Assembly: GCF_038025025.1 (NCBI RefSeq)
Contig: NW_027117342.1
Location: forward strand, 2,418,001-2,469,777
Direction: 5' to 3'
From: Phyllosticta citribraziliensis
Taxonomy: Eukaryota
Length of the DNA stretch: 51,777 nucleotides
Shown piece after piece: positions 8,080 through 47,569 of this stretch (position 1 is the first letter of the stretch; every line of letters begins with the position of its first letter). The notes beneath the pieces are model-generated. The model worked only from the letters and a program-made list of their open reading frames with translations. It was not told the DNA's origin and made no database searches. A program made the translations under genes and the position numbers.

Positions 8080-10378
8080 ATGCCTACCCAACCCGGACTT
8101 GAGAAGCAGATCAACAGCACAAGGTTCCTGTATTCGAATATAAACCAAGATCGACGAACGCCGTTTCTACAGAGGAACCTCACACAGGCTCTAAATCAAC
8201 ATCAATCATCGAAAGCTCAGACCCTGTTGAGCAATGAGGCGTCAACTCGTGCGCCTAGTCGGCGATCATGGGCGCCTCCCAATGCCCATCTTGCCTCGGT
8301 CATCGGTTCAAGGCATTCATCTTACGAGCTTCGATTGCACTCAGGACTCGCCATAAAACCGCCCGCTCATTCAAACAACACAACTGCACATGATAGCCTG
8401 GTTTTTACCGCAAGATCCTTCTTGACCTTTTCGCTTTACAGAAAAGAGGAAGGAGGCCCATGGACGACCAGATACAAAATCGGGAGTGAGGCAACACTCA
8501 AGGCACATCGCGACGGAACTGCCACTTTATCCCTATTGCAGCCTCCAACATTTCCTGCTCAAGTATTTCAAGGCCTGGAGAAGGAGTACAACGGTGGAAA
8601 CCTGGGTACACATGTTGGTCCCAAATACGTCCTCAAGATTGCGCTCCAGTGTGCGTACCCGTCGGACAATAACGAAGTCTTTAAATTTCTGGGCATAGAC
8701 CAGCAGCGGGGTTCTGATGGGCAATACCTGCGCTCCTATGTGCATCACCTTCCACGATGCCCGGCCACAGACAGGGGCTTTGAAATCAAACTCGCCAACA
8801 GCAACGAGAAGATGTTGTGTAAATCTGAACACACACTACACGTCGATATGGATTGGGTTGTGCCAAACATGAGCATCATGGAGGAGTATAACCGAACAAT
8901 CCGTCTTGAACGTGGACAGGGTTCATCTGTGCCAATGCAGCCCATGGAGCCAGTGCGCATCACGTACAGATGCGACCAAGCGGGTATGCAAAAGCCGCTC
9001 GTGGTCCAGGGCTCTCTGTGTCCAATATGCTGGATGCGCGATTTCAGGACTGTGGAGCGTCTTCAGCTGCACATGAAGCTGCAGCATGATCGCTTCCATT
9101 TTGCTTTCAAAGAATTCAAACCGCCCGAATGTCCATCTTCCAAAGGGGTACACGTTAGGCTCACGTTTAAGGAACGTACGGAGAAACCACATTCGACTGG
9201 AAGAAAATTCCAGGAAATCCGGTGGATCGCCCCTACCCGACCTTTTGACCTCGATGCTTTTCTGGCGGGGGACGAATCGTGGGTTGAAGGGAAGAGACGC
9301 AGAGCCCCTCTTGCCGCCATCGCCGCACTTGATGCCAAAATACAAAGAAGGCCAGAAGATGTCGAAGATCTACCAAAGCCGGCGCGGAAGCGATACAAGG
9401 TCCCTCGCATCATCCAGGAGGCCGAGAAAGAAATCGTCCTATTCGCCATGCACTCCCGACGGCCGCTCGTAGAGGGCGAGGAAATCAGCGAGGATGACAA
9501 TTCAACAATCCCAGCCTATGCCGTCTCAAAGATCAGGCGCAGGAGCCCGAATATGCCTCGCACTGCAGTAGAGTTCGAGGACAAATGGGACGCCTATATG
9601 CTGGACGAGCGCTTGAACAGTGATTTCGTGGGCGAGGCTGTCGTTCGCTTCCTTCGACACAACGAGACGTGGATCAAAAACATTCCTGGCATGCTAAATG
9701 AGTGGCTCAACAAGCTCGGCGAACTGAAGGAGGATGGCCTGCTTAGCGCTGCTTTCTACAAGTACCTGACTAGCGATACTAGCACCGATTTCTCCGATTT
9801 CTCCAAAGCTCAAGAAACTCGAGTAGAAACAAGCATTGATAAAGCCAAGGACGCAGAAGCTGGCAAGAAGAGAAAGCGGGCCGATGCGAGCGACAATACG
9901 GACCCATTCTGCCGTCCTAGCTCTCCCAAGAAAACGAAGCTGAATGGCGAACAAGTCGAGCAGCCAAGTGGCAAGGAAAACACATCGCCAAAAGAAGCGA
10001 GTCTGCCCAGCCAAGGCCCGGCGAGCAATCCGCTGTCGAAGAACTCCATTGTTCAGACCCAACCTGGCCGCCGCGACAAGCCCAGCGGGACAACAAAAAG
10101 CACGACTGGCAAAGGCGGGACTCTCCCGAAAGCTTCTCTGCCCGACGTATGTTCCTGCGTCTGCGGGAAGCCCGTTGCGACCACTGATACTCCCGCAGCC
10201 ATCACCTGCGCCAACATCGTAAGTACCCCACGAGCTCCGACGGGACCAGCAGTACAACCAGCTAACACCGCCGCTCCAGGAGTGCCTCCGCGAAGAATTC
10301 CACTTGTTCTGCGTGGGCCTCGACAAGCGCGTTGCTGGGTGGCGATGCGACGACTGTGCTGCGCCGAATGCACGGTAA
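8080..10378 (+). CDS. suz12: SUZ12-like Polycomb PRC2 subunit (C2H2 zinc finger + VEFS-like box) with C-terminal PHD finger
   Basis: N-terminal RRTPFLQRNL; zinc finger CPIC..LQLHMKLQHDRFHF; VEFS-like RRPLVEGEEISEDD..FEDKWDAYM. Intron 10219-10279 adds ECLREEFHLFCVGL..WRCDDC. Confidence 0.75.
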
Positions 10379-11725
10379 ACCCATCTCACCCAAGGCATCC
10401 TTTTCTTCTCTTGCTCAACTAATCTTCCGTGTGCGATGACAGCGAGTTGGACATGCCGCCGCCTCTCCCTCCGCCTTTCCCTCATCCTTTGTCCCTCCTT
10501 TCTCGTTTCTTTGCTTGGTAGCACGCATAGCATGGCGTAGCATGGTCGATTGACTGATTGATTGCATCCGCTCCTCCACGGCGTTTCGAAAAGCCCCTCC
10601 TTGCTCTTTTTGCACCGTCGATAGCGGCATGATTGGCGTCCCCTCCCTGTTTTCTTCTGCGAGCGAGTGTGCTTGCATGGCGGATACCCTGAGTTCATCT
10701 CTATTTTGCTCTCTGCGTTTGTGCTTTTGCAGCATCGGCTGGAATTCCTTGCGGAAGTTGCTTTGCGGACACACTGTTTGCTTCCTCGCTACATACTGCG
10801 GTCTTGTGTATATCCTACACACGCCCAAGACTGTTGCTGCTATGCGTCTCTTGCTTTGAGGACTCGAGTGCGTGGGTTGATAGATTGCTTCGTCGCCTTC
10901 TGAGTGGGCCTTTTGGCTCGTCGACTTGCTGGCTTGCTATTTGTCGATGCCACACGTATATCCGTGTACAGACAGACAAATAGAAACCTTTCCTCTCACT
11001 CTACGACGCCGGCGGGAGCGGAAAGTCAAGATACGAGATTCCCATGCATGGATTTCAGCTTTCAAAAAGTCTGGACTACTTAAAGTTGAGCAGTCCTTTT
11101 TAAACTTTCGCGTCGTGAAGTTTATTATGATACCTGGTACGGCTCACCAGCTTTGGTTCGGTGCAGTGTGATAGAGTTTAGGCCCTGCACGGTCTGACTC
11201 GGTTCTGCGACTCTGAAGTCTGCTTGCGTTTTATCTTCGTGATTATTGTGTACTGCTTGTGGGCTGTGAGGCTTAAATGTACGACCAGGTAGATCTTTCG
11301 CTGTGGCGGTGGACCAGGACGACATGCTGGTGTAGTCGACCTATCTTGGGCATGGCGTTTGGGAGGAGATGCTGTCAAAGAGACGACGCTGCTCAGAGAC
11401 GATGGCTGGCATGTCACGGCCGCTGCTTCCTGGCTTTTGGGTCATGGCTGCATGTGAGTGATGCGAGGGATATGAGAGACGGAGAGAGGAGGTACATTCG
11501 ATCGAGGCAAAAAACGCGCAAGAGATCCACGCTGTCGAAAGCAGCCGATCCCACTCGATGGAGACTTCAATTCTTGAAATGCCGCCGTTGCCGCAGCAGC
11601 CATTGAAGCCGCAGTGGAGCTCCCTACGCTATCCCGACCTATCTCCAAACCATATCCAACCTTTATCAACCTGCACCAACAAAGAGCTGGCGTGGCCTTG
11701 CTCCGTCGTCCAAAGCAAGCAACGC

Positions 11726-12508
11726 TCAAGACGAAGCAGCGCCGGAGACGTCGCGCTCATCCGGCTTCAAATAGACACGCGCGCACTTCTCCGGGAGCTC
11801 GGCGTCGTTCAGGGCGCCCGGCACCGCGGCCGCGTTGTGCAGCCAGAAGAGCTGGAAGCTATAGTCCTGGAGCTGGCAGACTGTGGTTATCTATCATCAG
11901 CGGCAAGTCCGCGCGTTGGGCGGCGGAGGAGAAGGGAGAGAGAGAGAGAAAAACTTACCGACCCAGCCGAGGAAGTCGGTGGAGAGGGGGACGAGGCCGT
12001 CTTGCGCGGGCTTGTGGAAGAGCTCGGCGTGTATGGAGCTGGCGCGCTTGGATCGGACCGTGTACGCTTTGATGGTGACGGGGTCGAAGATGGAGATGTT
12101 GGAGGGCTCGAACGGCTGCACCAGGGGCTGCGTCATCGGGTGTCTGGGAGCAGTCAGTCTCAGTGCCATGAACGCGCAGTTTTGAGAGAGCTTGGGGCGT
12201 TCTTACGCGGCGTCGTCGACGGGGACGTCAAAAGAGAGGTAGTTGACGTCGAAGCTGAACGTCTGGTTCAAGAAGGCCATGGGACCGGGGTCCTTCTGGA
12301 CGAAGAGCTTGCCAGCGGTGCCGGACATGACAGGGACGACGGTCTTGCCATGGAAGCGAGCCTTGGTGACGAATTCGGTCGTGTTGACGAGCTCGGTCAG
12401 GATGTGGAATTTGGTCCGGCCACCGGGGGTGACGTTGGTGAGAGGGGTGGCGGCGGCAATCTGGAGCAGGACGGCCAAGAGCAGAGGGAGGATGGACTGG
12501 AAGAGCAT
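11726..12508 (-). CDS. Small secreted / cell-wall-type protein (3 exons)
   Basis: Signal peptide MLFQSILPLLLAVLLQIAAA. GTAAG donors at ~12207 and ~11957. Last exons give FLGW..CQ..FQLFW..CARVYL. Confidence 0.7.
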
Positions 12509-13055
12509 GGTGGTTGGTGGGTGGAAGAGGTTGCGGGTGTAGTGTTCAAGAAACACCCAAACTGTCTGCGTGAACGATTATATATGCCTTAAGCAAGATT
12601 CGGTGCGCCTGGTGGATGGTAATTGGAAGGCACACTGAGCCTTCACGAGAGAGCTGATTAAATGACCTGGGCGGACAGGACTAAGGAGTATTCTATTCCA
12701 TTGCTTGCATCCATGATATCGCTTGCCACCAAAACAAGCAGCAGAGCAGACCCGATTGCAGACCTTCTCTTAACACCAAACTTGATGTTGCTTTGATCTG
12801 TACAATCGAGCTCCTAAACCTCATCCACTGGACATTCCAGAACACCTGGCTGTCTTTGTGTTGAAAGTCAGCAAGGTTAGTAATGAAACCTCGCTCTGCA
12901 AGTTGAAAGTCATTAATGTATAGCGCTTCTACTAACCCCGTCTCATAGCTCAGAAATTTGACGCATGTTGTCCATGCTGCCATTCTGCTGTCGTCTACTC
13001 AGAGCCGTCCTGTCATGCCTCCATCGATTCAAACGGCATCATTAGACCTTCTGAC

Positions 13056-15740
13056 CTAGACCAACAACGCAAACATCAGATACGTCCGCCGCCAATACTC
13101 TACCGTGCCCTTCCTCAACCTCTCCTCCGCCGCCTTGTCCAGGCCTGGCAACGCATCCTGAATGCGCTTCTCAAGTGTGGCGAGCGTTGACTCCTCGGCC
13201 GTGGTAGCCGTGCCTGTTGATCGAGACAAGGCTCGCGAGAGGTACATGACGTCGAAGAGGAGATGAGTCAGTTTGTCTTTCTTGACAGCAGCAAAAGCCG
13301 CAGCGTCGACGACTGGTGCTTTGCTCGTCGATGTACCATTTGTTTCAGGTGGAGCAGAGGTAGGCGAGAGCGTTGGCTTGGTGGTATCCGGAGCGGTTTC
13401 GGAGCTTTCTTCCTCGTCGTCTTTGCTTTCTTCATGTCCTTGCTCGCCGTTTGCCTCTGCAGTTCCCTCATCAGCCTTGTTTTCGCCTTTACTGCTGTCA
13501 TCATTGTCCTTGTTCTCATCCTTGGTAGCATGTGAATCTTCTTCCTTCGCTTCGTCATCTTGAGTCGGCGGAGTAGCCGACTCAATAACGCTAACAGTCT
13601 CGTCGAGCAAATCTCCCACTGCACTTGCAATCTCCTTCTTTAGCACAGATACAGCGCCTGGTGACCAAAGATCGCCACCCCGAGACGTCATTTCTTTGCT
13701 CAGAGCACTCATGAATTTGAATGCTGGGACTGAGGGTTGGACAGGAAGCTGCGGCATGCCTTCCCACAGCGCTCGAGCGCGCGCCTTACGCGTAGAAGCA
13801 AACTTGTTCAGTGAGATTTTGTAGGTGGCCAGAGGCGTCGCAGCAACGGCTTTTGCGACTGAAAGATGGAGGGGTTGAGTGATGGCGACGGGGAAGGTCG
13901 TTGGGGAAGTAATGTTTCGCCTGGTCGAGTCGGACAGGGAAGCAAGACGTTGGCTGATTTCTCGCAAGGAGCGAAGAATAAGCATGGCTTTGAGTGGAGC
14001 GTCATGATCTGATGAGGTCAGAGCAGCCTGGGCCAGTCCTTCCACGTCTTTTTGCAACTTTGCGAGAGATTCGGAGAGTGCTTCGTTGAGCGAGTCCTCG
14101 AGAGTGCGCGGGTCGTCTTCGCTGAGAAGCGCCTGTCGCGAGTCCAGATCAAAATCGTCGTCGTCGTCGTCAACATTTAGGTCGTCATCCCATCTGGTAT
14201 CTTTCATTTCCTTGATCACGACAAAAACTTCTTCCAAAGACTGGGACCACGCGGCGTAGGTGCTGATGAGGCGTCGGAGGGAGGCGTTGATCCCATGACT
14301 CCTCTCAATGATTGCTTGCTTGAAAGCGGGCGCACCGTGGGAGATATCGATGGAGGTAGTGGAAGGATCCCACAGTGATGTGACTTGGTCAGATTGAACC
14401 TCATCCCAGTCATCAATGCTTTCCTTGAGCTCCGCCGTCACCTTCTGGAGCTGGGCCGCTCTGTTGCCGAAAAGCGTGCGCAGGCGATCAGTAAATGCAT
14501 CTCGCAAATCATCGAGAATGGAAGCTGGCTTGACACCAAGATAACGGTGGTTGGACGACAACCACGTCTCGAGCACGTCTCTCCGCACATTGCGGACAGT
14601 CTTCGGATCCTTGAGGTCTTCCAACACCTTTCGGACGGTATCAAGAAAGGACTTGATGGCCTGCTTCGACCACGCCTTGAGCAATCTCTCCGAGTCTTCT
14701 GTGGAAAGCTCGTCATGTCTCGGCCAGGGAGTGTAGTTCCTCACGTTGTCTGCAATCCAACGTTGATGGACATCCAAGTCAAGTTCGACAATGGCCTTGA
14801 TGTCATTGTCTTGCAACAAGGGTCTTGCCTTGAGCTTCACCAATGCTTCTGACAAGCGGTTCGGGAAGATTGTTTGGGAATCCTGCAGCGTTCGCACATA
14901 GAGCTTCAAGGCCTTTGGCAGGTGTTCCTGGTTAGCACGTCCCTCTTCGACCAGCCTGGTGATTGATTCAAGCCGAACGTGGTGGAAATGGCGCAACACG
15001 TCGCTCGGGGTAGAGCTTGTGGCGAGAGAAAAGGCAACCATGCTTTCAAGGACGTCGCTAATATCGGCACTTGGGCGGGAAAAGTGCTTGTCGACATTGT
15101 TTAGCAGCTTCCGCCGCAGCGAACCCAGCTGAAGCTTCAGACTCTCCAGAAAGGGTGGTGCATCTGGAGCTTTTGACAAATCGTTGTGGAGAAGACGGGA
15201 CACAACCAAGACTTTGGCAGCGAGGAAGATGGAACCCCTTTTCAAAAGCCGGCGCATAACTGTTGGACAACTCTGCAGCACGCGCAGCTGCGCTGTGAAT
15301 GAATAGCGCTCACCATCTGCAAACATCAGCCAAAGCTCAAGTGTTTGCAAAAGAATCTTACCCAGCTTGCGGGTATGTTCCAACAGGTCAGAGTAGTTTT
15401 TGGCAATCTTGTCTACTCTTCTCGAGTTGCATTTGCGCCCGATTACACCAAGAGTCGCATCAACGTCCTGAATCTGGTGGTCCATTTCAATGATGCGCTC
15501 TGCGGTCCCCAGCAGGTCGCGGTAGCTCGCGCTATGCAGGCCCAGTCAACAAGCTTTCCAAAGAGGGCTGGTCACAGCCAGACAGGATTAGACCTACCCG
15601 ACCAAGGAGCGGAGCTTCTCCCGATTCTCGCTGGCATTGCTGCGAAGTTGCTGCTCGAATTTTCGGACCACGGGCACGGGATACTTGAAAGCATCCTCCC
15701 AGGACTGAAAAGTCCGGGGATCTGGGGCATCGATTGCCAT
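13056..15740 (-). CDS. COG1: Conserved oligomeric Golgi complex subunit 1 (Vps51/Cog1 N-terminal domain)
   Basis: Exon 1 SWEDAFKYPVPVVRKFEQQLR..EKLRSLVG, intron ~15597-15532, then SYRDLLGTAERIIEM; C-terminal EYWRRTYLMFALL. Confidence 0.85.
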
Positions 15741-16405
15741 GGTTGGGGATGTGGAGTCAAAACACGTTGCCTGATTGGCGTGGCCGCCAGAGGAGACGTT
15801 GGAGCACGGCGCAGGATCGGACTATCGAATCTCCGGACTCACGCTGTCACGTGTGGTGAGAAAGTCAAGAACTAGATTTAACACTGGCACACTGGAATTG
15901 CCCATCTGTTTCTCCTTGGACACTCATCTCTTGGAATCTGAGAGGCTAAAGTCAACCAAAAGTCAAAGACAAAGACGAAAGTCGGGCCACTCATTCACCT
16001 CTGCCAAGCACCTGGTGGTCGCTTAACGTGATTGGGACTAGCGTCATTATTAGCGTGATCTCGACGCGTCTCCCACTGCTCTGCACATTTATTTCCTGGT
16101 GACCTCTGACTTCATCACCACCTCTCTCCACCCACCTCTCTATCAACGACCTGACCACCAGTGCCATCGTCCTCGGATTGCTGTTTTGACAAAAGCACGC
16201 TACCTGCACTCACAAATCACCCTTCTTTGCGCTTGAGAAAGCTCTCTGCTTCCAACAACCTCGCCAAACAATTCGCAGAAGCAAATCGCTTGTTTCCAGC
16301 GGGATTCTGCGATACAAAAAGGCATCACGACCGAGTGATCTCATTCCCTCCCCTGGTACAAATCCTCAGTATACGCCTTCTCCCAAATCAATATACAACG
16401 CCGCC

Positions 16406-17101
16406 ATGTCGCCCACCAAGCGCTCCTACATCCCCGCTCCCACGCCGCGCTCCCAACACGCCATCCCCGCAACGCCTGCTGTGCCGCATCCCAACACGGC
16501 CAGATTCCACGAGGCATGCCGCCGTATCATGGCCATCGCCGGCGAAAAGGAAGGCTCCGCAATCGTTTCGGAGATCCACGAGTGCATCGGGTTCTCGGCC
16601 CAAGTTGAAGCAGCCAACTTCTACGCGCTGCAGGCCGAATACGAGGAGCTTCACGGCAAATACAACAACCTGAAGCTCAGCTACCAGCAGCAGAAAGAGG
16701 AGCTGGCGGCAGCTCGAGAGCAGGCCGGCCTCGCTCCCAAGGCCCAGCCCAAAACCCCCGTCACGCCCTTGATGAAGACCCCGGACCGCTTTGACGGCAC
16801 CACGGTATCGGTACTCCTCAACTTCATCAAGTACCGCAGCGACATCGCGAGCGTCTTCCAGATCGATGCCCGCTTCTACCCGACCGACGAGGACAGGGCG
16901 GCATTCATGATCGACCGCCTCGAGGGCCACGCGCTGAAGACGCTGTACGGTGGCGCCAAGAGCATGGGCAAGGGCGTGGAGAGGCTCACGGTCGCCGAGA
17001 TCGTTGCCATCCTGGAGGAGCACTTTGGTCCAGAGAACTCTTCCGACCCGCACCGCGCTCTTGTTCTGGACGTCCGCAGGCAGCACCAGAAGAAGCGCTG
17101 A
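16406..17101 (+). CDS. Stand-alone Ty3/gypsy Gag-like protein (coiled coil + capsid N-terminal domain); candidate domesticated gene
   Basis: 231 aa; coiled coil then PDRFDG..F..YPTDEDRAAFMIDRLEGHA..LEEHFG..DP, the retrotransposon Gag CA-NTD pattern. Host-like GC3 codon use; no LTR, pol or RIP damage visible. Confidence 0.75.
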   Translation: MSPTKRSYIPAPTPRSQHAIPATPAVPHPNTARFHEACRRIMAIAGEKEGSAIVSEIHECIGFSAQVEAANFYALQAEYEELHGKYNNLKLSYQQQKEELAAAREQAGLAPKAQPKTPVTPLMKTPDRFDGTTVSVLLNFIKYRSDIASVFQIDARFYPTDEDRAAFMIDRLEGHALKTLYGGAKSMGKGVERLTVAEIVAILEEHFGPENSSDPHRALVLDVRRQHQKKR

Positions 17102-17681
17102 AAGAGCAGCTTGGGGCGTCCTCTGTGAGCGCAAGGGAAGGCACCAAGGAAGAATTTTGGCGCGAGCGTTTGGCGCATGGCATGGGGAGGATTAATGAAC
17201 GCCTACGAGGTAAGTCAAACCACAACGCCATCATTTGGACAATTACTTACAATGAAGAAGCATGATCAACGATTTCAACGAAGCAACGACGCACAGCACC
17301 ACCAATGATACCCCCACGAATGAACGAGGCCCACACCGTAATTCACATCACCCCCAAAGAACGAGGCCAACACCAGGAATGGATACCGAGCTGGAAGCAG
17401 TGGTTGACACGAGGCATGGCAAGGCATGTGGGCATCAGGAGTAAGTAGGAAAAAAGTTTCATTTTCTTTCGATCGTGCACAAAAGAACGCAGTAGGTATC
17501 TGGAAGAAAGAGGAAGGGGAAGGACAGCAAGATTCAGTAGGTGACTCTCTCCCACTAGCCAACCACCCATTCTAGACTCCATTCCTTTCAACGCCCACCA
17601 AGCCCATCAAAAACCCCAAGCTTTTCCCGTCAAACAAGTTAAGAACGACAATCACGTTTTCCTTTTGCTCCCATGCCCCCC

Positions 17682-18878
17682 TCACAGCCCGTTGTTCTTG
17701 AGGAAGTTGTTCATGTGCGCAAACACCCGCGAAGCACCGTAGTGCACATTGAGCGCATGGCCAGCGCCAGGCAAGATGAAGGTGTCGGAGTTGCCGCCTG
17801 CAGCCGGGAAGAGGGCGCCAGCGACCGGCGCCGTCTGGTCCGAGGGGCTCAGGCAATCGCCCTGGCAAAAGATGAAGTCGTTCTGGCCAATGACGACGTC
17901 GACGGGGCCCTTGAAGGCGGCGGCGGGCGCGACGACCTTGGCGAGGGTGAAGAACTCGCCAAACGTAAACGTCTGCTTGTTGTTGTCGGCCTGGGCAAAC
18001 AGGCCGGCGTCGTAGTTTGGGTTCTTGAAGAAGGTGAGCTGGTTGCTCTGCGGGCTGCCCGTGACCAGGTAGCCGTTGGACAGGGCGCCGAAGCGCGCGG
18101 GCTGGTTCTTGTTGGCGAGGGCCGCGTTGAAGCCGGCGAAGGTGAGGCCAAAGGCGCTCGCTGACAGGCCGAAGCCCGTTAGCATGACGGCGTCGATGTC
18201 GGCCGGGTACCGCGACGCGATGCCGATGCTCTGGATGCTGCCGAACGAGTGCCCGCCGATGGCCACCTTGCTGAACTTGGTGCCCAGCAGCGCGCCGCCG
18301 CGCAGCATCTGGATCAGCGCGTGCGCGATGTCCACCTCGAGCGGCGACTGCACCACCTGGATGGCGTCCGGGTGGTCCGACTGGCCCACGCCCAGCCGGT
18401 CGTACGTAAAGGTCGCGTAGCCGGCGGCCGCCGCGGCGTCGACCTGGCTGTAGCCCGGCGCAAAGTCCCAGTAGCTCTTGTCGAAGCCGATGCCGTGGAT
18501 GAGGAACTGCACCGTCGGCGGCGTGACGAGCGGCGGCAGCGACAGCAGCGGGAAGCACAGCTTGGCGTGGATGTTGAAGGTGCCCGAGACGGTGGCGTCG
18601 GGGCCCGTCAGCGACTGCACCAGCGTCGAAGTCGATGTCAGATACTGCGTGAAGATGTCCGTGACGGCCGACTGGTTGGCCGGCAGGTTGAAGTTGAGCT
18701 GCGTGTTGCCCGTCGTCGTGACTTGCACGGCAACGAGGCCGCTGTAGCACTGCGCCTTGCCGCCCTGGGACAGCGACAGGACCGGTATGGTTTGGAAGCC
18801 AGTCAGGCTGCTGAGGAGGGGGATCGTGAGTGCCGAAGCCCCGGAGGCAAGCACTGTGGCGAGGGCAAAGTTCCGCAT
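17682..18878 (-). CDS. Secreted alpha/beta hydrolase
   Basis: Signal peptide MRNFALATVLASGASA; HGIGFDKSYW, YDRLGVGQSD, nucleophile elbow GHSFG, C-terminal GHALNVH. Confidence 0.88.
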   Translation of the reverse strand: MRNFALATVLASGASALTIPLLSSLTGFQTIPVLSLSQGGKAQCYSGLVAVQVTTTGNTQLNFNLPANQSAVTDIFTQYLTSTSTLVQSLTGPDATVSGTFNIHAKLCFPLLSLPPLVTPPTVQFLIHGIGFDKSYWDFAPGYSQVDAAAAAGYATFTYDRLGVGQSDHPDAIQVVQSPLEVDIAHALIQMLRGGALLGTKFSKVAIGGHSFGSIQSIGIASRYPADIDAVMLTGFGLSASAFGLTFAGFNAALANKNQPARFGALSNGYLVTGSPQSNQLTFFKNPNYDAGLFAQADNNKQTFTFGEFFTLAKVVAPAAAFKGPVDVVIGQNDFIFCQGDCLSPSDQTAPVAGALFPAAGGNSDTFILPGAGHALNVHYGASRVFAHMNNFLKNNGL

Positions 18879-19841
18879 GGCTGCTGGTAGTTCGAGATGC
18901 CGGAGCAGAAAGAGATGATTGGAGTCGGCTTCTGTCGCGGTTCTTGCAAAGTGAAAGGCCTGGGATACAAAAGATGGGCAACTTGAGACTCCACAGTAGT
19001 TAAATGCAACTCGCTCCCGACCAAGACCACGAGGCAAACATGCTTCGCGGTGGCTGTGAAGTCCATGACAAACCGCCCAGCGAAGACCGAGAGACTGGCA
19101 CCAGGGCGGGCTGGATCCAGAGCATCCAGTTGTCTGGATTCGATAGTCAAAAAGGGCAGTCGCTAAGGCCTCTCGCGAGGCCGGCTAGTCCCAAAAGTCT
19201 CGTAGCGGGACTGCGGGGGAGCCCGAGCAATCGTCTCGCCAGTGGCTTTCTAGAAGGCAATTCGATAAACCGCAGCGCCTTTTCGCATCTGCGGTTCCTC
19301 GGGCTGTGCTTCTAGCCGACCGTTGCGCAGCAAGCGTGGACTTGCATCGTCGATTGGGACCATGCCGCTGTGCCACAGCCGCGGTTGAGGGTTGACAGAT
19401 TTTGGTTCTCGGTGACAGTTCTTCCCAGGGCGGCAGGGCATTTGCAATCGAAGCCATGCTGAGCTTAGTGCCCAGTCTGGATTCAGTATGGCACACCAAA
19501 TGGAGCTCTGCTGCTGGCCCTGCCGGTCCACTAGGATGAAAGTGGCAAGCTGACGGCCGTTTGCAGCGTCAGGCATGGTGAAAGTGGCATTTTACCGAGG
19601 AAATGCGGAGGATTCCAGAGACCCTGATATTGGAATTCTTGGGGGCGCTGTTCGGGTCGTTCCTGAGAATCCTCTGGTACGCAGGCGCTAGACCGAAGCC
19701 TTTCGTTCCTGATTTTTCTTTTTTTCAATGTCTTCAACACTGCTATTTGTCGCTTCGTATCCCGTACGAGACTGGGACCAGGCAAGCCTGCGCTCAGTCA
19801 TAGCGCTTTTGGTTTGTCGACTCAGCACGGAATCAATGGAC

Positions 19842-19879
19842 AAAAAAAAAAAAAAAAAAACAACAACAACAACAACAAC
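19842..19879 (+). repeat. poly(A) run followed by (CAA)n microsatellite
   Basis: A19 then CAA x6, read directly. Confidence 0.9.
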
Positions 19880-22800
19880 GCAGATTGCTGAGTCGGCATC
19901 TAGAACCCGCAGAAGACGTCGTTTCAAGATGACGGGCGTCTCGAACCTGGCAAATTGTTTTTTGCTTTTGAGATAGCCCAGAAATGAAAGAGACTATGGA
20001 GATTGAGAGAGAAATCCTTTTAGCTCTGAGGACACATGGTATGAGGTATGGCGCGCAGAAGTCTCAAGACTTGACGAGGCTCAAATGGCCAAACGGAAAG
20101 CGAAGACGAAATATGGCAACAAACTTTGAGGGAAACTAGGTGTTACTCATGTCGAGGACCATGAGATGAACTGCTAGCAGTACGCATACCTTGTCTCTAG
20201 AAGAATGACCTCTGTGAAAGCCATCTCGGTGGCTGGAGTTTTGCTTTGAATGCTTACCTGGTATTCAGGAGGGAGTATATGCGAACGCTTTTGCCCCTTC
20301 GAAGTCAGACTAAATTACCATGATAATTGGGCAAAGACAGAAATGTTATGGGTGCAATCGAGTTTTTGAGGAAACCTGCGGTTCTGCGAGTGGCGGATTG
20401 CACCTGGCACAGTCGATGCCGGCTGCAGACTGACCAACTCGATCTTGATGCTGCAATTCAGGCAACCCGCTGACGTGTAGGCGATGCAGTGCAGAATCAA
20501 TGAGATCGAATTGACATCAGGACGGTGCAGAGGCATCGGATTTCGATGCTTTGTCGGCCCTGACTAAGAGTGACGTTGATGCGAAATAATAATCAGATTG
20601 TAGAATCTGGAGAAGAAAAAGAAGCGGAGATAATGTGGCTAAGCCCGGTGCCAGTGACCGAGCATGACGTATGGCATGTGGCTGACTCGCGTGCTTCAAC
20701 CTGGAGGACCGTTCCGCAGAGCCTCAGGCGCGTGGTGTGCTCGAAGAACCTGGAACCCCGGCCGGCGACGTGTGTGTGATGTATTGAATGGAGAAGATTT
20801 GGTGAGGAGGAGAAATCTTGAAAAAGTTTGTTCAAAGGGTAAGTCGTAGGTTCTCAATGCACGGCACAACACCAGCCAGTCAACAACAACACGGCTGGTC
20901 TCCCATGAAGCGTTGCATGAAGACGCTGAGAAAAATAACCTTGAATTGTGGAGACAGAGTCTAGACGGCAAGGCATCGTTGGAGAGGGGGGAGGACTCGA
21001 AACACGTGCAAGAATGAGATGCGAGCCCAATCAGGAAGCAGGATCCCCTGACGCGAGGTTGATCGTTGATCTGAGAGCTTCCAGCGTCTTCGTGATGCGG
21101 CCCGGTCGGCAAAAACGTGCCGTCTTGGGAGCTTTCAGGGACAACCAAGATTGAGAGCGGTGTCTCTGATGTACATCCACGTGTCGTTTCAAGTCCCCAG
21201 TGTCGAGCGGCTGTGGCCTCCGAATGGCGGATGCGTTCCCGCAGCGAAAGCGGGAGTGCGGTAGGCGCACTGTGCAGCGCAGTCGCCCGTGGATCGAAAG
21301 AGAAGTCGAACGTGACAGCTAACACGCTGATTGTTTCCATTATCAAATGCAGGTGTCAAAGGTGGTGATCAGCAAGTCTTGATCGTCGAGTGTTTGGTGG
21401 CTTCGAGAAAAGCGCTGCTCCCATTGACATGCTTCTGGCGTCAGGCCGCTGTCAGACTGGGCTGGCTGGGGGTGCCATGTTGCCAGCCACGACAATGACC
21501 TGGAGGTTGCATCACCAAAGCACTCTTTGGGATTTTGGAGGGAGCCTGGACAATGGAAGAATGGAGCGGGCCGATCTACGCAGCAGCTGTGGCAGTGGCA
21601 CGATGGTCGAGGGGTGCCGTCATCCGGGGAGGCCAAACGGTGGGACTGCCGGCATCTCGCTCCCGACCGCTGCAGGGTCGTGGCGTCGAGGGCCAGTTTA
21701 TGCCTAAAGAGGACGTTGAAGCCAGGTCAGCGGAGTTGGTTCGAAGTTGGCTCGGACCACACTAATGTGGCCATCCCCAGTGCAACAGTACGAGATGGCC
21801 TGGAGGGAGTGGCACAGATGGGAGTAGTTGTAGTGGTGCGGGGCGGTAGTTGACGTCGGGATTGTTAGCCCAAAACGGCGAGCAGGCGGCCACGACTTGC
21901 GTGCGCCGTGTTGGCTCTGGGGAAACAGCACAATTGCTGGGCATTACGGATCAAGCTTTCTTTTCCGGCTTGGCAAGTCTTGACGCTGGACGCACGGGGT
22001 CTCCAAATTACCACTTGTGGATTTGGCAAGTCGACGACAGCCCCTGATGACCTCGAGCAGCAGGGGATGCGAGAGAAACCCCACGAAATGCGAGTGAGAT
22101 CAGGGACTTGGCCTCAAGGCGGTGGTCAGCTAAGCACTTGGCCTCGACCGCTGCAGACTCCAGCAATGACATGCGTCGGGAGAGCGGCAGCGGGCAGCGG
22201 GCAGCTTGGCAATGCAACAACAACCTTATGGGCTGCCAGAGCAGAGCAGAGCAAGCAGCGACAGATGTCCGAAAGCATCAGGGTGCCGCGTATCCGTCCA
22301 GGCAGTCCTGTTGTTGTGGTGCCGTGCCGTGTTGCGTCTGGCTGGTGGCTATAGCTCCTCGAGCTTGGGCGGCCGGCAGGGAGGGAGCTCCTGCGTCACA
22401 GCTTCCGGTTCCACCCACTCACCACACGATACCTGACCTTACCCCGCCAACCACCCATTACGGATACGCCCAATTCCCTTCGTCCAGCGGAGGACGCCAG
22501 CCAGAGGGTAGGGCTGCTGACGGGGGCAAGGATAGCCCGGCCTGCGAGCACGAGAAGCTGGTTCCGAAGACGAGGAGTGCGGTTGGCAAAGAGCTCCAGT
22601 TCCTCTCACGGCGCGTTTGCTAATGGGCCAGGAGACCCCGCATCTCAGCCAACGGATCCCGGAGACGAGGCCAATTTCGCCCTGGACCATGCCTGACCTG
22701 AAGCTTGAGCGCCATGAAGAAGTGGGGAAGCTTTGTGCGCCTGTCTCTGTGCTGTGCTGTGCTGTGCCCTCGAGATGCCACCTCTCAGGTCTCTCTGCCC

Positions 22801-27389: not shown

Positions 27390-30300
27390 ATGACGCAAGA
27401 TGCAAAGACGCGCCAGTCCTCGGGCGGCAAGTCCTTCTTTTCGCGCCGCAAGCACAAGGACAGCGAGCTCCCTGAGCCGCCTCCGCAAACCACTCTCTAC
27501 CCGGCGCCCACCAATTCTCCGGGCTCGCGCCACTCCCACCGCTCCTCTGTGGCCTCGATCGACCGCCCATTGTCCATGTTGCCCGACTCCGTGGCTGGCA
27601 TCAACCACGGCGCCGGTGTGCTGACGAGCATACCCTACGACAGCACAAACCAGGACGGGAGATCGCCCGTGCCTGTCGACTACCTACCTCGAGACAACAG
27701 TTCTGCCCGGAGGGAACCGCTGCCCCATCATCTTAATCAGGGTGGCGTAGACTTTCACCAGTACCCCGTCTTCAACGCGCCCCCCCAGTCTTCGAACGGA
27801 AACCCGGTTCCTCCACGGCCGCCCCCGCACACGTCTGCAATGAGCTCAAGTCAGCCGGGCGATAGAGGTGTCTCCATGCAACAATGGGCTCGACCAGGTA
27901 CCAGCAGCTCGAGACCCTATTCGCCAAGCAGCCACAACTACTCCTATGGCTACGCGCCCACCGAGTCTTCGTCCAACACGCGGGCGTCGTCAGATCAGGC
28001 GAGCGTTTACTCAAACCATTCAGGCCAACGAGACACGAAAGGAAGCTACATGTATTCGCCGACGCCCTCGCAACAAAACTTCCAAACGCTCAGTGTAGAC
28101 CAACACACGTTCCTCCCAGCGATCAATCCCAACTCGCGCTTCGCCGCCAGCGCCAACTCTTCAACCGCATCCTTCAACGACCCTGCTGGATTCAATATAC
28201 AAAGACCTGCCGATGACAGGCAAGTCGAGGCAGAATTCATGGCTCTCATGCAGAAGCGTGGTTGGAACAGCTTGCCCGAACAGGCCAGGAGACAAATGGA
28301 GGCGTACCCAGTGGCAAAAAAGTGGACATTGGTTCACCAAGACCGGCTCGCAGAATGGCAAGGAGAACAACGGAGAAGGAACCAAAGAAACACACAACAG
28401 TACTCCGACGGACAAAGCATACTCGGCCGTGCAGACGAGGAGGGCAGCCCGGAGTGGTATGTGAGAAAAGTGTTGGACAATTCAATCACGGCCAAGCAAC
28501 TCCAGTCGCTGAGTGTGAGCTTGCGAACGCAGCCCATCGGATGGGTCAAGGCATTTGTGGAGGCCCAAGGCCAAATTGCGCTCACAAACGTCTTGAACAA
28601 GATCAACCGCAGGCAAGGGCAGGGCCCCGCACCACCACCAGGCCCGCAATCCTCGCAAGACAAGGACCTCGACCGGGAATACGACATTGTAAAGTGTTTG
28701 AAAGCGCTCATGAACAACAAATATGGTGCCGACAATGCTTTGGCCTACCCTCAAATCGTCACTGCCCTCGCCGGGTCACTGATCTCACCAAGACTCAACA
28801 CGAGAAAACTTGTCAGCGAAGTCCTCACATTTTTATGCCACTGGGGCGCTGGAAAAGGCCATGAAAAGGTGCTGCAAGCATTGGACCACCTCAAGCAGCA
28901 GCAGGGCGAGAATGGCCGATTCGATGCTTGGATGCGCATTGTCGAAGTCACGGTCGACGGCAGAGGAAAGATGGGTAGTTTGGTTGGCGCAAGCGATGAA
29001 GCTCGAAGTGGCGGCATTGGATTTGAGAACCTGCTGATGGAATACGCCGTGGCATCCCTATTCCTCGTCAACATGATTGTGGACGCGCCAGAGCGAGATC
29101 TCCAGTTGCGCGTCCACTTGAGGGCGCAATTCACAGCATGCGGCATCAAGCGTATCCTGAACAAGATGGAGGGTTTCCAGTACGACGTAATCGACAAGCA
29201 GGTTGAAAATTACCGCACTAATGAGGCCATTGACTACGAAGAGCTGTTGGAGAGAGAGAACAACAGCATGGTCGACAGCGTCGAGGGCGAAGTCAAGGAC
29301 CTAAACGACCCCGCACAGATAGTCGAGGCTATTATGAACAGGATCCACGGAACCAGGGTCCAAGACTATTTCGTTTCGGCGCTGCAGCACCTGCTCCTGA
29401 TTAGAGACAACGAGGGAGAGGATCGCCTCAAGATGTTCCAACTCGTTGACTCGATGCTGTCGTACGTTGCCATGGACCGGCGGCTGCCGGACATGGACCT
29501 CAAACAGAGCCTCAATTTCACCGTTCAAAGTCTGCTGGACAAACTCTACACAGACTCGGAGGCCCGGCAAGCCAGGGATGAGGCAATCGAGGCACGGCAG
29601 ATTGCCGACGCAGCGATTGCTGAGCGTGATGAGATGCGCGCGCACCTCGAGCTCGGCGCAGATGGCATGGTTGGCAAGCTTCAAAAACAATTGGAAGAAC
29701 AAGCCGCTCTGCTGGACCTCCGAGGGCGTCAAATCAAGCAGCTCAAGGCCGAATTGGACAGCGTACAGTTGGTGCGTGCCAAGGAGATGCAACGCAATGA
29801 GCTCGAGACTCGAGAGCTGTACCTCATGCTTAGAGATGCACAAGATGTTGCTGCTTCTGCTGCAAACAAGAACAAAGCAGACGGCGGTAAAGACATGGGT
29901 CCCACCGACCCTGCGCTCATGGCTGGAATTTTGGACCGGGAGAAGCTCATGGGGAGACTCGAGATGCAGCTTGAGCGGGCCAAGACGCAGGCCAAGCTCG
30001 AGGGCAAGGTCTGGCAGGCCGTCGGACCCTCTGACAAGCTGCGAGAGTTGCGCGAGAAGATGGATGGCTATGACGATGATCGTATTGACAGCGACCATCA
30101 AGTCCCTCTGTCACGTAACGACCTTGCAAACAGCTTCCTCGGCACCGTCACACGCAAGCCCGTTCCCAGGGGCCAGAGAAGAGTGCAACAAGAGGACGAT
30201 GACACGGATGCCGAAAGCCCCGTATTCGAGAAGCCTCGCATCGTCGAGTTCAAGCGGCCCCAGATGGCTTCGCAGCAAAAGGGCGCATTCCTGGGCGAGA

Positions 30301-33090
30301 TTTCCGAGAAGGTCAAGAAGATTGATGGAAGTGATGAAGAGACCGAAGGCGAGGATGAAGAGGAGGCGCCGACCCCTGACACCACAGAACCCAGCGCCGA
30401 ACAGACGCCCAAAACGTCTACAGATGAAGAGAAGTCCTTTGATGGTCCTCCTCCGCCGCCGCCGCCGCCCATGCCAGGCACCGATGGCGCTGCTGCACCA
30501 AGCATGCCCGGTTTCAACAATGCTGCTCCTCCTCCGCCTCCTCCACCAATGCCCGGATTTGGCGGTGCTCCTCCTCCGCCTCCTCCGCCAATGCCGGGCG
30601 CGTCCGGTCCTCCTCCGCCGCCTCCGCCGCCATTGCCTGGATTCAATGGACCGCCGCCGCCTCCCCCGCCGCCTGGATTTGGCGGTCCTCCTCCACCTCC
30701 TCCCCCCGGCGCCCCACCTCTTCCTGGTGGAAGGCGTGGCCCTGGATTCCTGCCGCAGCCCAACTACGCCGGTTCGCAAAAGGTTGGGTTGGCATTTGCA
30801 CGTCCCAAGAAGAAGCTCAAGGCGCTGCATTGGGAGAAGGTCGACACGCCACAAGTCACCATGTGGGCAAACCACGCACCTTCGTACGAGGAGAAGGAAG
30901 AAAAGTATCGGGAGCTGTCCAAGAGGGGTGTGTTGGACGAAGTCGAAAAGCTCTTCATGGCAAAGGAAATCAAGCAGATTGGCAAGAAGAAGGAGGCCAA
31001 GAACGACAAGAAGCAGCTCATTTCGAACGAGTTGGTCAAGACCTACCATGTTGCCTTGGCCAAGTTCTCGCAATACGCTGTTGAGGACATTGTGAGAATG
31101 ATTATCCACTGCGACAAGCCAATCCTCGAGAACGACGTTGTCATGGAGTTTTTGCAAAGGCAGGAGCTCTGCGTCATTCCCGAAAACGTCGCCAAGCAGA
31201 TGGCTCCTTATGCCAAGGACTGGACAGGTCCCGACGCTGCAAATGCATCGCGCGAGCTGGACCCCTCGGAGCTCACCAGGGAGGACCAGATTTACCTCTT
31301 CACTGCGTACGAGCTGCACCACTACTGGAAGTCGCGTATGCGGGCTCTCGACTTGACCCGGGCGTACGAGCCCGAGTACGATGAAATCTTCAACAGGATC
31401 CAGAAGATTGTGCGCTCGTCTGACTCGTTGCGTGACTCCTTGGGCCTTATGAATGTCCTCGGTCTCATTCTCGACATTGGCAACTACATGAACGACGCCA
31501 ACAAGCAGGCCACTGGTTTTAAGCTCTCCTCGCTTGCCCGTCTCGGCATGGTCAAAGATGACAAGAACGAGTCTACTTTTGCAGACCTTGTCGAGCGCAT
31601 CGTGCGCAACCAGTATCCCGAATGGGAAGGCTTCGTCGATGACATTGACGATGTCATTGCTGCGCAAAAGATCAATGTCGATCAGCTAATTGTTGATGCC
31701 AAGAAGTACATTGACAACATCAACAATATTCAGGGCAGCTTGGACTCGGGTAACCTCAGCGACCCCAAGAAGTTCCACCCCGAAGATCGTGTGTCGATTG
31801 TTGTGCAGCGTGTCATGAAGGATGCACGACGCAAGGCCGAGGCCATGGGCGACTACCTGGAGAACATGAAGAAGACATATGATGATATTTTGACATTTTA
31901 TGGCGAAGACCCGTCGGACGAGAATGCCCGCAGAGATTTCTTTGCCAAGCTAGCAGTCTTCGTCATGGAGTGGAAGGTGAGCATCCCTCAACCTGTTTTG
32001 TTTGCTGTTCCCCAAATGCTAACCGCATGATGTGCAGAAATCTAGAGAAAAGAACGTCAGAGTGGAGGAGACGCGCCGCCGCAACGAGGAATCGATGCGC
32101 CGCAAGGCGGCTGCTGCTCCTCTCAGCCCTGGTCTCCGCGACGGGCCACCCCTTTCACCCGCCTCAACCGGCGCAATGGATACCCTCTTGGAGAAGCTGC
32201 GCGCTGCCGCTCCACAAACTCGCGATCAGCGCGATCGCCGCCGCCGTGCGCGCCTCAAGGACCGCCATCAAGTTCGCGTCGCTTCAGGCCAAAAGATGCC
32301 CGATATGCCAGACATGGAGGCAGAAGGCGAAGAATCTGGTGCTTCCGGCAATGCGGCCGCCCAACCAGGAGCGAATGGCCTCCTTTCGCCCAACAGCGTC
32401 TCCGGCAACGGTGACGGCGAAGGCACATCAGGCGACGACGGCGACAAGGACAAGGGTGGTACTAGCGAGGGCGAAGACATTGTCGACCGCGCAGCTGTGA
32501 TGCTGCAGGGTCTGCGTGGCGATGGGACGGGTGAGACTTCGGATATGCCTGGTGCTGTCGGCCGAACCGACGATGGCAGCATTCGCATGCGGCGTCGGAG
32601 AGAGGGCATGGGCGAGGAGCGCGAGAGAAGACGAAGACGCCGCGGTAAGCAGGGTAGCAGCGCAGGACTCGACGACGCAACCAAGGAGGAAGGCGCAGAA
32701 AATGATTCTCGCCCTGGAACCGCGCACTCTCGTCCAGGCACGGGCTACACGGAAGGGCGCGACTCGGTTGCCGAGAGCGAGTCCACGCAGCAGAGCCGCG
32801 AGAGCGATGGCAAGGATAGTGGCGACGGCGAGCGCACCGCACTACCGAGTCCACCGCCCGAGCGGAAAGGCAGCCGAGACGCAGATGCAGACGAAGCCGA
32901 TGAGGAAGGGGATGGCGATGTCACAATGACGGATGCAACGATGACTACGAATGGGGATGGCAGGAAACAAGGGAAGGAAGGGGATGGCGAGAGACCGCAG
33001 TCCCCGCTCCCAACCCCGGTCACAATAGTCAGTCCTCCCAGTCCAGGGGCTGTGGCAAAGGAGAACGGGCAAGGCCACGGGGAAGAGTAA
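27390..33090 (+). CDS. sepA: Formin (SepA/Bni1-like): GBD/FH3, poly-Pro FH1, FH2, DAD
   Basis: LSVSLRTQPIGWV, poly-proline tracts, KLKALHWEKV, GNYMN..GFKLSSL, DAD MDTLLEKL. Intron 31977-32037. Confidence 0.95.
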
Positions 33091-39953: not shown

Positions 39954-40910
39954 ATATACTATCCTAATAGTATAGACGTGTTAATTATCTCTACTACTAC
40001 TAGTAGAATATAGCAGGAATACTATACTATTAATTTATTACTATAACCTAGGATAGAAGAACCTAGGAGAAAGGAATACTATATAAAGGGACGTCCTAGT
40101 AATAGATTTAAAGTAGTTATAGTAGTGTATTAAGGATTTAAATTCTAAAGCGCTACTATAATATAGTAGGAAATTAAAATTAATAGCGACTAGGGGTTTT
40201 TAGTACTAAGATATATTATTAAGGGGCAGTTAAAGATAGCAGAACAGGGCCGATATATTATAGAGTTTAAGGAGGATATAAGGCCTTTATTTCTAGTTAA
40301 GGGCTTACTTAATATAAAACTAAGATTTAGAAAACTAGGTAAGTATATAATTAGAACCTTAAGTATATTAAATATACTAAAAGATCTTAATAGTTTCTAA
40401 AGAGAATAAGGGGTAGATTATAGACTTAGTACTTAAAGAATACTACTTTAATAAGATTTAGATTACTTACTAAAAGAAGTCCTACTTAAAACGACCTTAC
40501 TTTTACGCCTATATAGGTTATAGGCTACTAAGTTTAAAGCTAGGATCGCGGTTTTAGAGTAATATTAGTATAGGTCTCTATACTAAGTAGGTATAATTAT
40601 ATAAGTATTAATAGCTCCTAATAATAGAGAAAACAGACTAAAATATAAGATAGTAGACTATAATAAACCTTAGATATATAACTCTAATAATAACAGCGTG
40701 GACCATCCTATATAGTTTATATAATAGGGTTTTAAAAGAGATCCTAAAGGAGGCTCTAAGGGAGAAAATATTAGAGATCTATATATCTTTATTTTCTAGT
40801 ATAGGTTAAAAGGTAAAGTTAAATATAGATGTATAACACCTAGGGTTATAAGTAATATAATATAATATAACCTTAACTCTAATTATATAGAGTTACCCTA
40901 TATAATAGGC
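39954..40910 (+). pseudogene. RIP-destroyed paralog of the DUF7918-like gene
   Basis: Reads EYYIKGRPSNRFKVVIVVY*GFKF*SAT, KLRFRKL and IFIF*YRLK, matching YIKAITGEQFEV..HHGFRYYTAT, KLAFGEV and VFEFRYRSL. GTAAGT/GTAAAG donors lie at equivalent positions. Confidence 0.65.
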
Positions 40911-41039
40911 TTTACTAATTATATTATATAATTAAGTAGTTTAATTATATAGAATTACTTTTATTACTCTTACTATTAAAAATTACTACCTAGTAGAAAT
41001 AATTTAATTTCTCCTTTATAATCTAAATATACTAAAAAC

Positions 41040-41273
41040 TACTACCTACTACTCTTACTACTAAGAGTACCCCTTATTTAGGGCTATCTCTCTTATATAT
41101 ATATATAAAATACTAAGACCTAGTTTTTTATAACTTTTAGGGTATATATAGTAGTACTACCTAGTATATACTCTAAAAGTTATAAAAAACTAGGTCTTAG
41201 TATTTTATATATATATATAAGAGAGATAGCCCTAAATAAAGGGTACTCTTAGTAATAAGAGTAGTAAATAGTA
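41040..41273. repeat. Near-perfect palindrome, ~110-bp arms around a self-complementary centre GTAGTACTAC
   Basis: 41040-41150 is the reverse complement of ~41164-41273; mismatches are mostly transitions. Confidence 0.9.
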
Positions 41274-41477
41274 TTTTATAGGGGTAATTTAGTAGTATAT
41301 ATATATATAATATAAGTATATTTTTAGTACTAAGACTTAGTATACTAAGATTTTAACTTAATTACCTAGTAATAATTAGTAAAATAGTAGGAGACTATAA
41401 GGAGAGAGGTAAATTTAAGTATATAAAATATATAATAATAAAGAGACTAGTTCTAAATAACTACTCTAGTATAGATC
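41161..41477 (-). mobile_element. 3' end of the hAT transposon, left of the gypsy insertion
   Basis: The transposase frame continues across the AGATC TSD (..S*IYTRVVI*, de-RIPped SWI.AGVVI stop). The left boundary is inferred from the palindrome arm. Confidence 0.55.
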
Positions 41478-47560: not shown

Positions 47561-47569
47561 GTAGGAGAC

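Follow-up and report, generated by a model that had tools for sequence, protein, structure and literature searches.

Genes co-opted from retrotransposon gag sequences are well studied in mammals, where they include Arc, PEG10 and the RTL and PNMA genes. LDOC1, one such mammalian form, places a leucine zipper or coiled coil ahead of a Gag-like domain of the DUF4939 type. Here we describe a candidate counterpart in a fungus, an intact open reading frame (ORF) encoding 231 residues at positions 16406–17101 on the forward strand of a 51,777-nt stretch of Phyllosticta citribraziliensis DNA (contig NW_027117342.1), the whole of which we call the window. The gene is expressed, is conserved in Phyllosticta and, judged from sequence, probably derives from the N-terminal part of a Ty3/gypsy-type Gag capsid. 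Its order of parts, a zipper followed by a Gag-like domain, is shared with LDOC1 and with the N-terminal region of PEG10. Those proteins, however, are mammalian and of the sushi-ichi lineage, no significant similarity between them and the Phyllosticta protein was measured, and PEG10 retains the capsid C-lobe, zinc knuckle and protease.

RTL8 (FAM127/Cxx1, of the mammalian Mart family) offers a second comparison. The published account of RTL8 (PMC11684626) describes a truncated protein of 113 residues, made of the capsid N-terminal domain (NTD), that forms no particles alone, enters PEG10 particles, binds the NTD lobe of PEG10 and lowers particle abundance. The proposed likeness is that of a small Gag-derived N-lobe protein lacking zinc finger, protease and pol, and DUF4939, the family carried by RTL genes, is the one that the Phyllosticta protein weakly matches. 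RTL8 differs in its smaller size, in having no long N-terminal zipper and in its known target, PEG10, which is recognisably similar to it. The Phyllosticta protein instead has an 80-residue helical region predicted to dimerise, and no sequence relative among Gag proteins in a search of 1.84 billion proteins.

In fungi, gag co-option was undocumented before the survey of Wang and Han, according to that paper (2021; PMC8321522). The survey gives three fungal cases, Crtg12 and Crtg13 from Ty1/Copia and Crtg14 from Bel-Pao; they are single-copy, syntenic and expressed, are older than the divergence of at least two families, and two of them lie in Dothideomycetes orders (PMC8321522). It gives no Ty3/Gypsy-derived fungal case and looked above family level only; recent events, its authors note, would escape it (PMC8321522). 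The Phyllosticta gene resembles these genes in being syntenic and expressed, with a gag origin indicated by weak matches and a copy count that covers the window only. It differs in being of Ty3/gypsy type, again by weak matches, and in occurring in one genus, whereas the three described genes are of Ty1/Copia or Bel-Pao origin and old.

Capsid-derived restriction supplies the last comparison. Ty1 p22, Fv1 and enJS56A1 are described as truncated or altered Gags that use capsid affinity to block parent or related elements (PMC11684626), a likeness that for the Phyllosticta protein is a proposal only. The differences are plain: p22 is a C-terminal part of capsid and is made by the element itself, not by a host locus, and Fv1 and enJS56A1 are Gag-like vertebrate proteins of full length. 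Literature searches, judged by titles and the starts of abstracts, turned up no such gene in Phyllosticta.

A transcribed gene and its orthologues

The ORF has the composition of a host gene. It runs from ATG to TGA, encodes 231 residues plus stop (protein P0001), and is covered by a gap-free contig of sequencing run X1 with 0 differences. Read directly from the translation, the product carries the motifs PDRFDG, YPTDEDRAAFMIDRLEGHA, LEEHFG and DP. GC content at codon positions 1, 2 and 3 is 0.62, 0.44 and 0.82 (GC at third positions, GC3, 0.823), against 0.50–0.57 in the flanking untranslated regions (UTRs) and spacers; this GC3 lies between those of a formin gene (0.663) and a hydrolase gene (0.91) in the window. 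Indices of repeat-induced point mutation (RIP) are ordinary (TA/AT 0.42, (CA+TG)/(AC+GT) 1.375), while an 11.8-kb AT-rich block that reaches the window end (40001–51777) is saturated with RIP (GC 0.21–0.29, TA/AT 1.71–1.90, (CA+TG)/(AC+GT) 0.00–0.22). Remnants of an element are absent from the locus. The stretch 12000–22000 has no long-terminal-repeat-like (LTR-like) direct repeat, its one direct repeat of at least 25 nt being a 26-nt pair at 77% identity. Pfam found no zinc knuckle in the protein, which gave three weak families at E<=10, and no protease, pol or integrase in it or in its neighbours. Within the 51,777 nt of the window, tblastn and blastn found no second copy of the ORF.

Transcript evidence shows that the gene is transcribed and its transcript spliced. 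Sequencing runs X1, X3, X4 and X6 were compared with the window as contigs, X1 being from the same organism; X1 and X6 are taken as RNA because their contigs carry spliced GT..AG joints, a reading drawn from those joints and not from run records. One X1 contig of 3706 nt, without a difference, is collinear with 16121–17207, skips 51 nt and runs on through the convergent hydrolase gene. It defines a 5' UTR at 16121–16405 (+) whose 285 nt hold no ATG, so that the start codon at 16406 has none ahead of it in the transcript; the 19-letter loose end at its 16121 start resembles sequencing adapter. The first part of the 3' UTR (17102–17209, +) leads into a 51-nt intron (17210–17260, +; GTAAGT...AAG) 108 nt past the stop codon, seen in X1 as a joint 17207>17259 (GT..AG, cut +2) at depth 248.5. 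The coding sequence is intronless. In X6, from an organism at about 90–95% identity (organism C), the same donor is spliced and 15 diverged letters correspond to 17261–17275; its coverage takes in the 5' UTR and the final 80 nt of the coding sequence. Expression is therefore documented by spliced contigs of two runs from two organisms, with the whole coding sequence in X1 and the 5' UTR and 3' end in X6. The run X3 covers 16156–16353 and 17446–19100 only, with no cover over the coding sequence, and X1 depth is zero across intergenic 15554–15934.

We assign the transcript to the strand of the ORF because the 3' UTR intron is plus-strand; depth is not attributable to the ORF, since the X1 contig merges two convergent transcripts. 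That single RNA-type contig joins our gene (+) to the hydrolase (−) across window positions 16121–19100 and beyond. Since one contig joins both, the 3' ends of the two transcripts overlap within 17261–17681, possibly as a natural antisense overlap. The position of the intron, 108 nt behind the stop codon, could mark the mRNA for nonsense-mediated decay (NMD), by which Arc mRNA is regulated via such introns.

Every relative that we matched belongs to Phyllosticta. Of 974 candidates in one homologue search, 2 reached E<=0.001; a HMMER profile search of 1.84 billion representative proteins returned 2 at the same threshold; and of the 7999 candidates screened with a profile built on six sequences, 3 came within E<=10. 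Identity to P0001 is 93% in P. citrichinensis, 77% in P. paracitricarpa/citricarpa and in P. citriasiana, and 40% in P. capitalensis; all lineages keep an open frame, even at that last level. A search for longer or fused forms brought none of 4035 candidates to E<=0.1, and none of 190 pattern matches in metagenome contigs or 22 in viral contigs was confirmed. The DNA-like run X4 matches the ORF at 88–97.5% identity, while blocks 16275–16396 and 17185–17278 are too diverged to align, and all 12 listed indels (of 24) lie outside the ORF. One P. citriasiana entry (P0007, 305 residues, 'partial') has a 75-residue N-terminal extension without a start codon, which appears to be translated 5' UTR, a gene-model artefact.

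The gene also keeps its place. Accession numbers of the gene and of the neighbouring α/β hydrolase are consecutive in 7 of 7 available pairs, the hydrolases forming one 90% cluster: in P. citrichinensis KAK8161424/KAK8161423 and KAK8160471/KAK8160470, in the citricarpa/paracitricarpa group KAK7533576/77, KAK7548533/32, KAK7555956/57 and KAK7606368/67, and in P. citriasiana KAK7514852/53. Taking consecutive numbers to mean adjacent genes, we infer that the position is kept in the four named Phyllosticta species of these pairs, and the same neighbour stands beside the gene in the window. The hydrolase itself (17682–18878, −; 398 residues; Pfam Abhydrolase_6, E 1.6e-15, and Abhydrolase_1) is convergent and served as both synteny anchor and rate yardstick. 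Wang and Han counted genes shared by at least two taxonomic families; ours occurs in Phyllosticta only, a result that concerns the rule of that survey and not co-option as a concept.

By itself the ORF is weak proof of a gene, because stop-free runs of this length turn up repeatedly in this DNA: in 1–40000, 27 of 2036 segments between stops reach at least 231 residues. A random frame with the composition of the ORF would stay open for 231 codons with a chance of 1.8e-4. We accept the gene as real because it is conserved and transcribed. A preliminary description of this DNA had reported an intact, intronless, GC3-rich frame with the four motifs, free of RIP damage, of LTRs, of a zinc knuckle and of protease or pol domains, and had suggested a single-copy host gene whose synteny in relatives could be checked. 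Each of these points stands, with copy number counted in the window, and a host gene at one locus, conserved and confined to Phyllosticta as far as sequence searches reach, is well supported by the synteny, the spliced transcript and the host-like GC3.

Two further candidates were rejected. An antisense ORF of 248 residues (16388–17134, −) spans the whole gene; it exists because the sense frame contains 0 TTA, CTA or TCA codons, and we dropped it as a by-product of codon bias, strong GC3 being found in the sense frame only. A secreted effector was dropped as well, the N-terminus having no hydrophobic segment in its sequence.

A predicted zipper and a capsid-like C-terminal domain

The protein divides into four parts of unequal conservation. 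A variable proline-rich tail (residues 1–27, 16406–16486, +) has no predicted secondary structure and a predicted local distance difference test (pLDDT) score of 33–39; it is identical at 13 of 26 positions in the citricarpa clade and 4 of 20 in P. capitalensis. The helical region that follows (residues 28–110, 16487–16735, +) keeps 62 of 83 and 39 of 80 positions, respectively, and a variable proline/lysine-rich linker (residues 111–125, 16736–16780, +; pLDDT 26–40) keeps 10 of 15 and 1 of 14. Best conserved is the C-terminal domain (residues 126–226, 16781–17083, +; PDRFDG ... LEGHAL ... EEHFGPEN ... DPHRALVLDV), which aligns gap-free with 90 of 101 identities in the citricarpa clade and 42 of 101 in P. 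capitalensis.

The helical region, which corresponds to the coiled coil of the preliminary description, is predicted to form a zipper. AlphaFold2 places helices at 29–45, 47–60 and 69–106. A heptad series (F72, L75, Y79, L82, Y86, L89, Y93, Q96, L100, A103) is mostly invariant, with L75, L82, Y86, L89, Y93 and L100 unchanged in all six sequences; its zipper positions are L75, L82 and L89, with Y79, Y86, Y93 and L100. Modelled as two copies, the protein is predicted to pair through a parallel, in-register interface over residues 30–109, with contacts 75:75, 79:79, 82:82, 86:86, 89:89 and 100:100. The dimer score was 0.51 against 0.00 for the best of three controls, runs agreed on at least 58% of contacts, and partner pLDDT was at least 68. 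Among proteins of solved structure, 21 of 30 that pair one chain with itself and 0 of 23 single chains attained the mark set for this score; for eukaryotes the counts were 17 of 29 and 0 of 30, with 1 of 7 where no older solved relative exists. These models support a parallel zipper homodimer but do not demonstrate it.

The same region holds a further set of fixed residues. H28, H35, C38 and C60 are invariant in six of six members, within a motif HPNT.RFH..C.RIM ... CI.FSAQ (residues 28–60, 16487–16585). They could form a metal site or merely pack helices.

Likeness to Gag is found in the C-terminal domain, by profile and by language model. In a Pfam scan among 24,736 families, DUF4939 (PF16297, the RTL/LDOC1 Gag-like domain; curated cut-off 29 bits) was the only family matched by all six members. 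The register is constant in every lineage, aligning protein residues from 109, 114 or 122 to 169–179 with profile positions 17–25 to 76–78 of 112. E-values are 0.00067 for P0002, 0.0017 for P0003, 0.0016 for P0004 (the 40% orthologue) and 0.017 for P0001. In a language-model atlas of proteins, the whole protein falls near an RTL6/DUF4939 cluster (0.90), with 9 of its 10 best family-bearing matches in one family or clan. Residues 118–231 alone fall near a DUF4939 cluster (0.93), Retrotrans_gag (0.92, 13 matches in the set), a cluster with both Retrotrans_gag and DUF4939 (0.91) and clusters bearing Ty3_capsid (0.89, 0.88), and all 10 best family-bearing matches belong to one clan. In the atlas DUF4939 marks RTL6 clusters, and on fungal clusters it accompanies Retrotrans_gag and Ty3_capsid. 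The tool itself rates such likeness as a lead, not proof.

Short patterns agree with this picture. The order P-x-x-F-x-G, then L-x-G-x-A-(x)-x-aromatic, then F-G-P is what we take to be the signature of the Gag capsid NTD (CA-NTD). The protein has PDRFDG at 126–131, LEGHALKTLY at 172–181 and HFGPEN at 206–211, matching that assumed signature, a weak kind of evidence. Invariant in all six members are P126, F129, G131, L172, E173, G174, A176, Y181 and G208. One position departs from the family: at 16806 the window has T (Val134) and all four X4 contigs have A, and residue 134 is Glu or Gln in every other member shown, so that Val134, in the domain's first helix, is a change peculiar to this species.

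Structure prediction adds little in either direction. Two AlphaFold2 models, from alignments of three and six rows, have mean pLDDT of 49.2 and 46.4, with residues 112–173 below 50. These low-confidence models put C-terminal helices at 132–142, 161–186, 196–207 and 215–230, which agree with a capsid N-lobe in number only. With such a model, Foldseek gave 0 of 251 matches at E<=0.001 against the PDB, the top rows being myoglobins, histones and a designed protein, and 0 at E<=0.001 among at least 500 matches against BFVD; among 48,161 chains compared by VIA-align, none was a match that could be used for the C-terminal domain.

Several results weigh against a Gag origin. All DUF4939 scores (15.5–20 bits) lie under the curated cut-off, and, as matches of proteins that share a common descent, the six are not independent. 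With the C-terminal domain alone, DUF4939 drops to E 0.027 and the unrelated RhiE_B does slightly better (E 0.013). Pfam gave no row at E<=10 for Retrotrans_gag (PF03732) or Ty3_capsid (PF19259). In the atlas, 4–10 in 100 shuffled proteins reach 0.9, and one shuffled protein in three has ten of ten matches in one clan. Three sequence searches of solved structures brought up no capsid or Gag among the 2, 7 and 5 sequences that they returned at E<=10, and the profile search of 1.84 billion proteins contained no retrotransposon Gag or Gag-Pol, leaving no donor element identified. The predicted zipper dimer is generic and uninformative on capsid ancestry.

Such results suit another explanation, in which a coiled-coil protein that is restricted to the genus or evolves very fast, and whose small helical C-terminal domain is unrelated to Gag, would act as a dimeric scaffold, its likeness to Gag being one of helical pattern and composition. 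That no family match reaches significance anywhere, that no relative outside Phyllosticta exists among the 1.84 billion representatives, that RhiE_B outscores DUF4939 on the isolated domain, and that the atlas permits a few per cent of false first matches at 0.9 all favour it. The helical part also draws noise, in weak matches to Borealin (E 0.016), DASH_Spc19 (E 0.065) and Slu7 (E 0.051). Yet each of these families appears in only one or two of six members and DUF4939 in all six. Out of 24,736 families, a profile hidden Markov model and the language-model features single out one small group, and the DUF4939 match falls on the conserved C-terminal domain rather than on the coiled coil, keeping a similar score and register in the orthologue at 40% identity. 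We therefore regard an origin unrelated to Gag as rather unlikely, if the most serious alternative.

Gag ancestry is the better-favoured account because two methods converge on one small clan, on the conserved domain, and because the match persists across 60% divergence. In our judgement the sequence comparisons make this probably a Gag-derived host gene at genus level, of Ty3/gypsy type and with the capsid N-terminal lobe only. We file it as 'probably derived from' Gag and not as an established Gag member, because the gene is of narrower spread than the depth rule of the published survey asks and passes no Gag family threshold. The Ty3/gypsy CA-NTD assignment of the preliminary description accordingly survives in part: the concordant weak DUF4939 match in six of six members and the atlas neighbours speak for it, and every score under the cut-off and the lack of a sequence match to a solved capsid against it. 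Overall, that description was essentially right in what it observed, its host-gene reading is well supported, and its Gag reading is plausible and sub-threshold.

The RIP-saturated block at 40001–51777 holds a degraded Ty3/gypsy-like reverse transcriptase (about 46112–46582, −) and RNase H (about 45515–45835, −), both recognised by Pfam, which found no recognisable Gag in read-through frames of the block. Likeness between our ORF and this element is at noise level (best E 0.76 in tblastn, 0.26 in blastn). A contrast had earlier been drawn with a motif of the neighbouring element's Gag, PDPPLLTDG; that motif is in none of the six frames of the window, and the contrast is not reproduced.

Possible readings: decoy, adaptor or relic

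We propose a mechanism that would join the two halves of the protein. The C-terminal helical domain of about 100 residues would derive from the CA-NTD of a Ty3/gypsy-type Gag, and the protein would stop where a complete Gag continues into the C-terminal capsid lobe and nucleocapsid. Ending there, it would probably form no closed shell and package no RNA through zinc knuckles. The zipper would display two CA-NTD-like lobes, and these could bind a partner through capsid-type contacts of the NTD:NTD or groove-peptide kind. Such a decoy might join assembling Ty3/gypsy Gag and poison particle formation, as RTL8 does with PEG10. Taken as a whole, an expressed Phyllosticta host gene with tail, zipper dimer and a domain derived from a Ty3/gypsy CA-NTD, acting as a decoy, is the explanation that serves best, and we lean slightly towards it. 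Among mechanisms we commit to the decoy or restriction role, argued by analogy, as the likeliest one, although in absolute terms it is tentative and improbable. Doubtful too, and somewhat more so, is the fuller idea that a fast-evolving, genus-specific N-lobe with a zipper is a bivalent capsid decoy that restricts retroelements beside RIP. Were the gene a decoy, its conserved 3' UTR intron might put it under NMD control.

A second explanation keeps the Gag origin and gives the protein a cellular partner. The Arc N-lobe binds short peptides of cellular proteins, and the lobe here may likewise bind cellular peptides or tether partners to proteostasis or stress machinery, in the manner of RTL8 with UBQLN2, with the zipper providing bivalency. 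By analogy with LDOC1 or the Arc N-lobe, a host adaptor role is about as likely as the decoy, and it rests on the same structural evidence. RTL8 and PEG10 are reported to regulate UBQLN2 (PMC12273755), which lends the adaptor a precedent. A capsid decoy may be redundant, because RIP already disables repeats in this genome. Strong conservation of the C-terminal domain (90 of 101 positions) is more in keeping with a constant cellular partner than with an arms race, and together with the presence of RIP it fits the adaptor.

Evolutionary rate pulls the other way without settling the matter. Against the citricarpa clade our protein has changed at 52 of 230 residues and the hydrolase at 24 of 398 (374 of 398 are identical to P. 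citricarpa), which is fast for a housekeeping adaptor. The gene is restricted to one genus, and the locus predicts no partner for it. Rapid change outside the C-terminal domain and the genus-level spread suit a conflict gene. The roughly 3.7-fold faster change fits an arms race, but it fits weak constraint equally well and to that extent speaks against the decoy. An adaptor is accordingly possible and improbable to the same degree as the decoy.

That the frame is a dead solo gag pseudogene or an annotation artefact with read-through transcription only is largely refuted and very improbable. In its favour, long stop-free frames are common in this GC-rich DNA, the RNA contig is fused with the hydrolase transcript so that depth is unassignable, and the antisense ORF overlaps. 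Against it, four named species share the place of the gene, and at 40% identity its frame is still open and its C-terminal domain free of gaps. The gene also shows strong GC3 in the sense frame only, with the antisense frame explained by codon use, escapes RIP though RIP acts on nearby repeats, lies at a locus free of LTR and pol, and yields a transcript that starts 285 nt upstream, has no upstream ATG and carries a plus-strand GT..AG intron.

Neighbouring genes and significance

The ORF lies between two genes of the opposite strand. Upstream is a divergent gene with an ORF of 809 residues (13056–15485, −) and a 45-nt intron at 15317–15361, seen in loose ends at 15362 of X1 and X6 that match window 15287–15316. 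Downstream is the convergent hydrolase. The preliminary description had this arrangement right, and the hydrolase too; its naming of the upstream gene as COG1 finds no Pfam match to that family at E<=1.

Other features of the window are of passing interest. An ORF of 214 residues at 20696–21340 (−) forms an unnamed one-member cluster in the protein collection, is without a Pfam family and is possibly a species-specific orphan; it is unlikely to be coding because GC is flat across its codon positions (0.55/0.55/0.55). Two ordinary host genes encode a protein with a SUZ12-like zinc domain, of the type of a Polycomb PRC2 subunit (8080–10422, +; E 3.5e-07), and a full formin with GBD, FH3 and FH2 domains (27390–32030, +).

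Should the Gag reading fail, the gene would be an ordinary lineage-specific coiled-coil protein. If it is true, the gene represents a gag co-option of Ty3/gypsy type, N-lobe-only and zipper-bearing, at genus level in a fungus. Its clear orthologues, 93%, 77% and 40% identical, would then show that captures occur on short time scales, outside the reach of the published survey. If the decoy reading is also true, this would be the first Ty3/gypsy-type gag co-option and the first capsid-based restriction factor at a host locus in fungi. With 231 residues, an intronless coding sequence, a predicted dimer and one capsid-like lobe, the protein is a small and tractable object for asking how a lone capsid N-lobe acts. 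It could also show whether capsid decoys add a second line beside RIP against retroelements.

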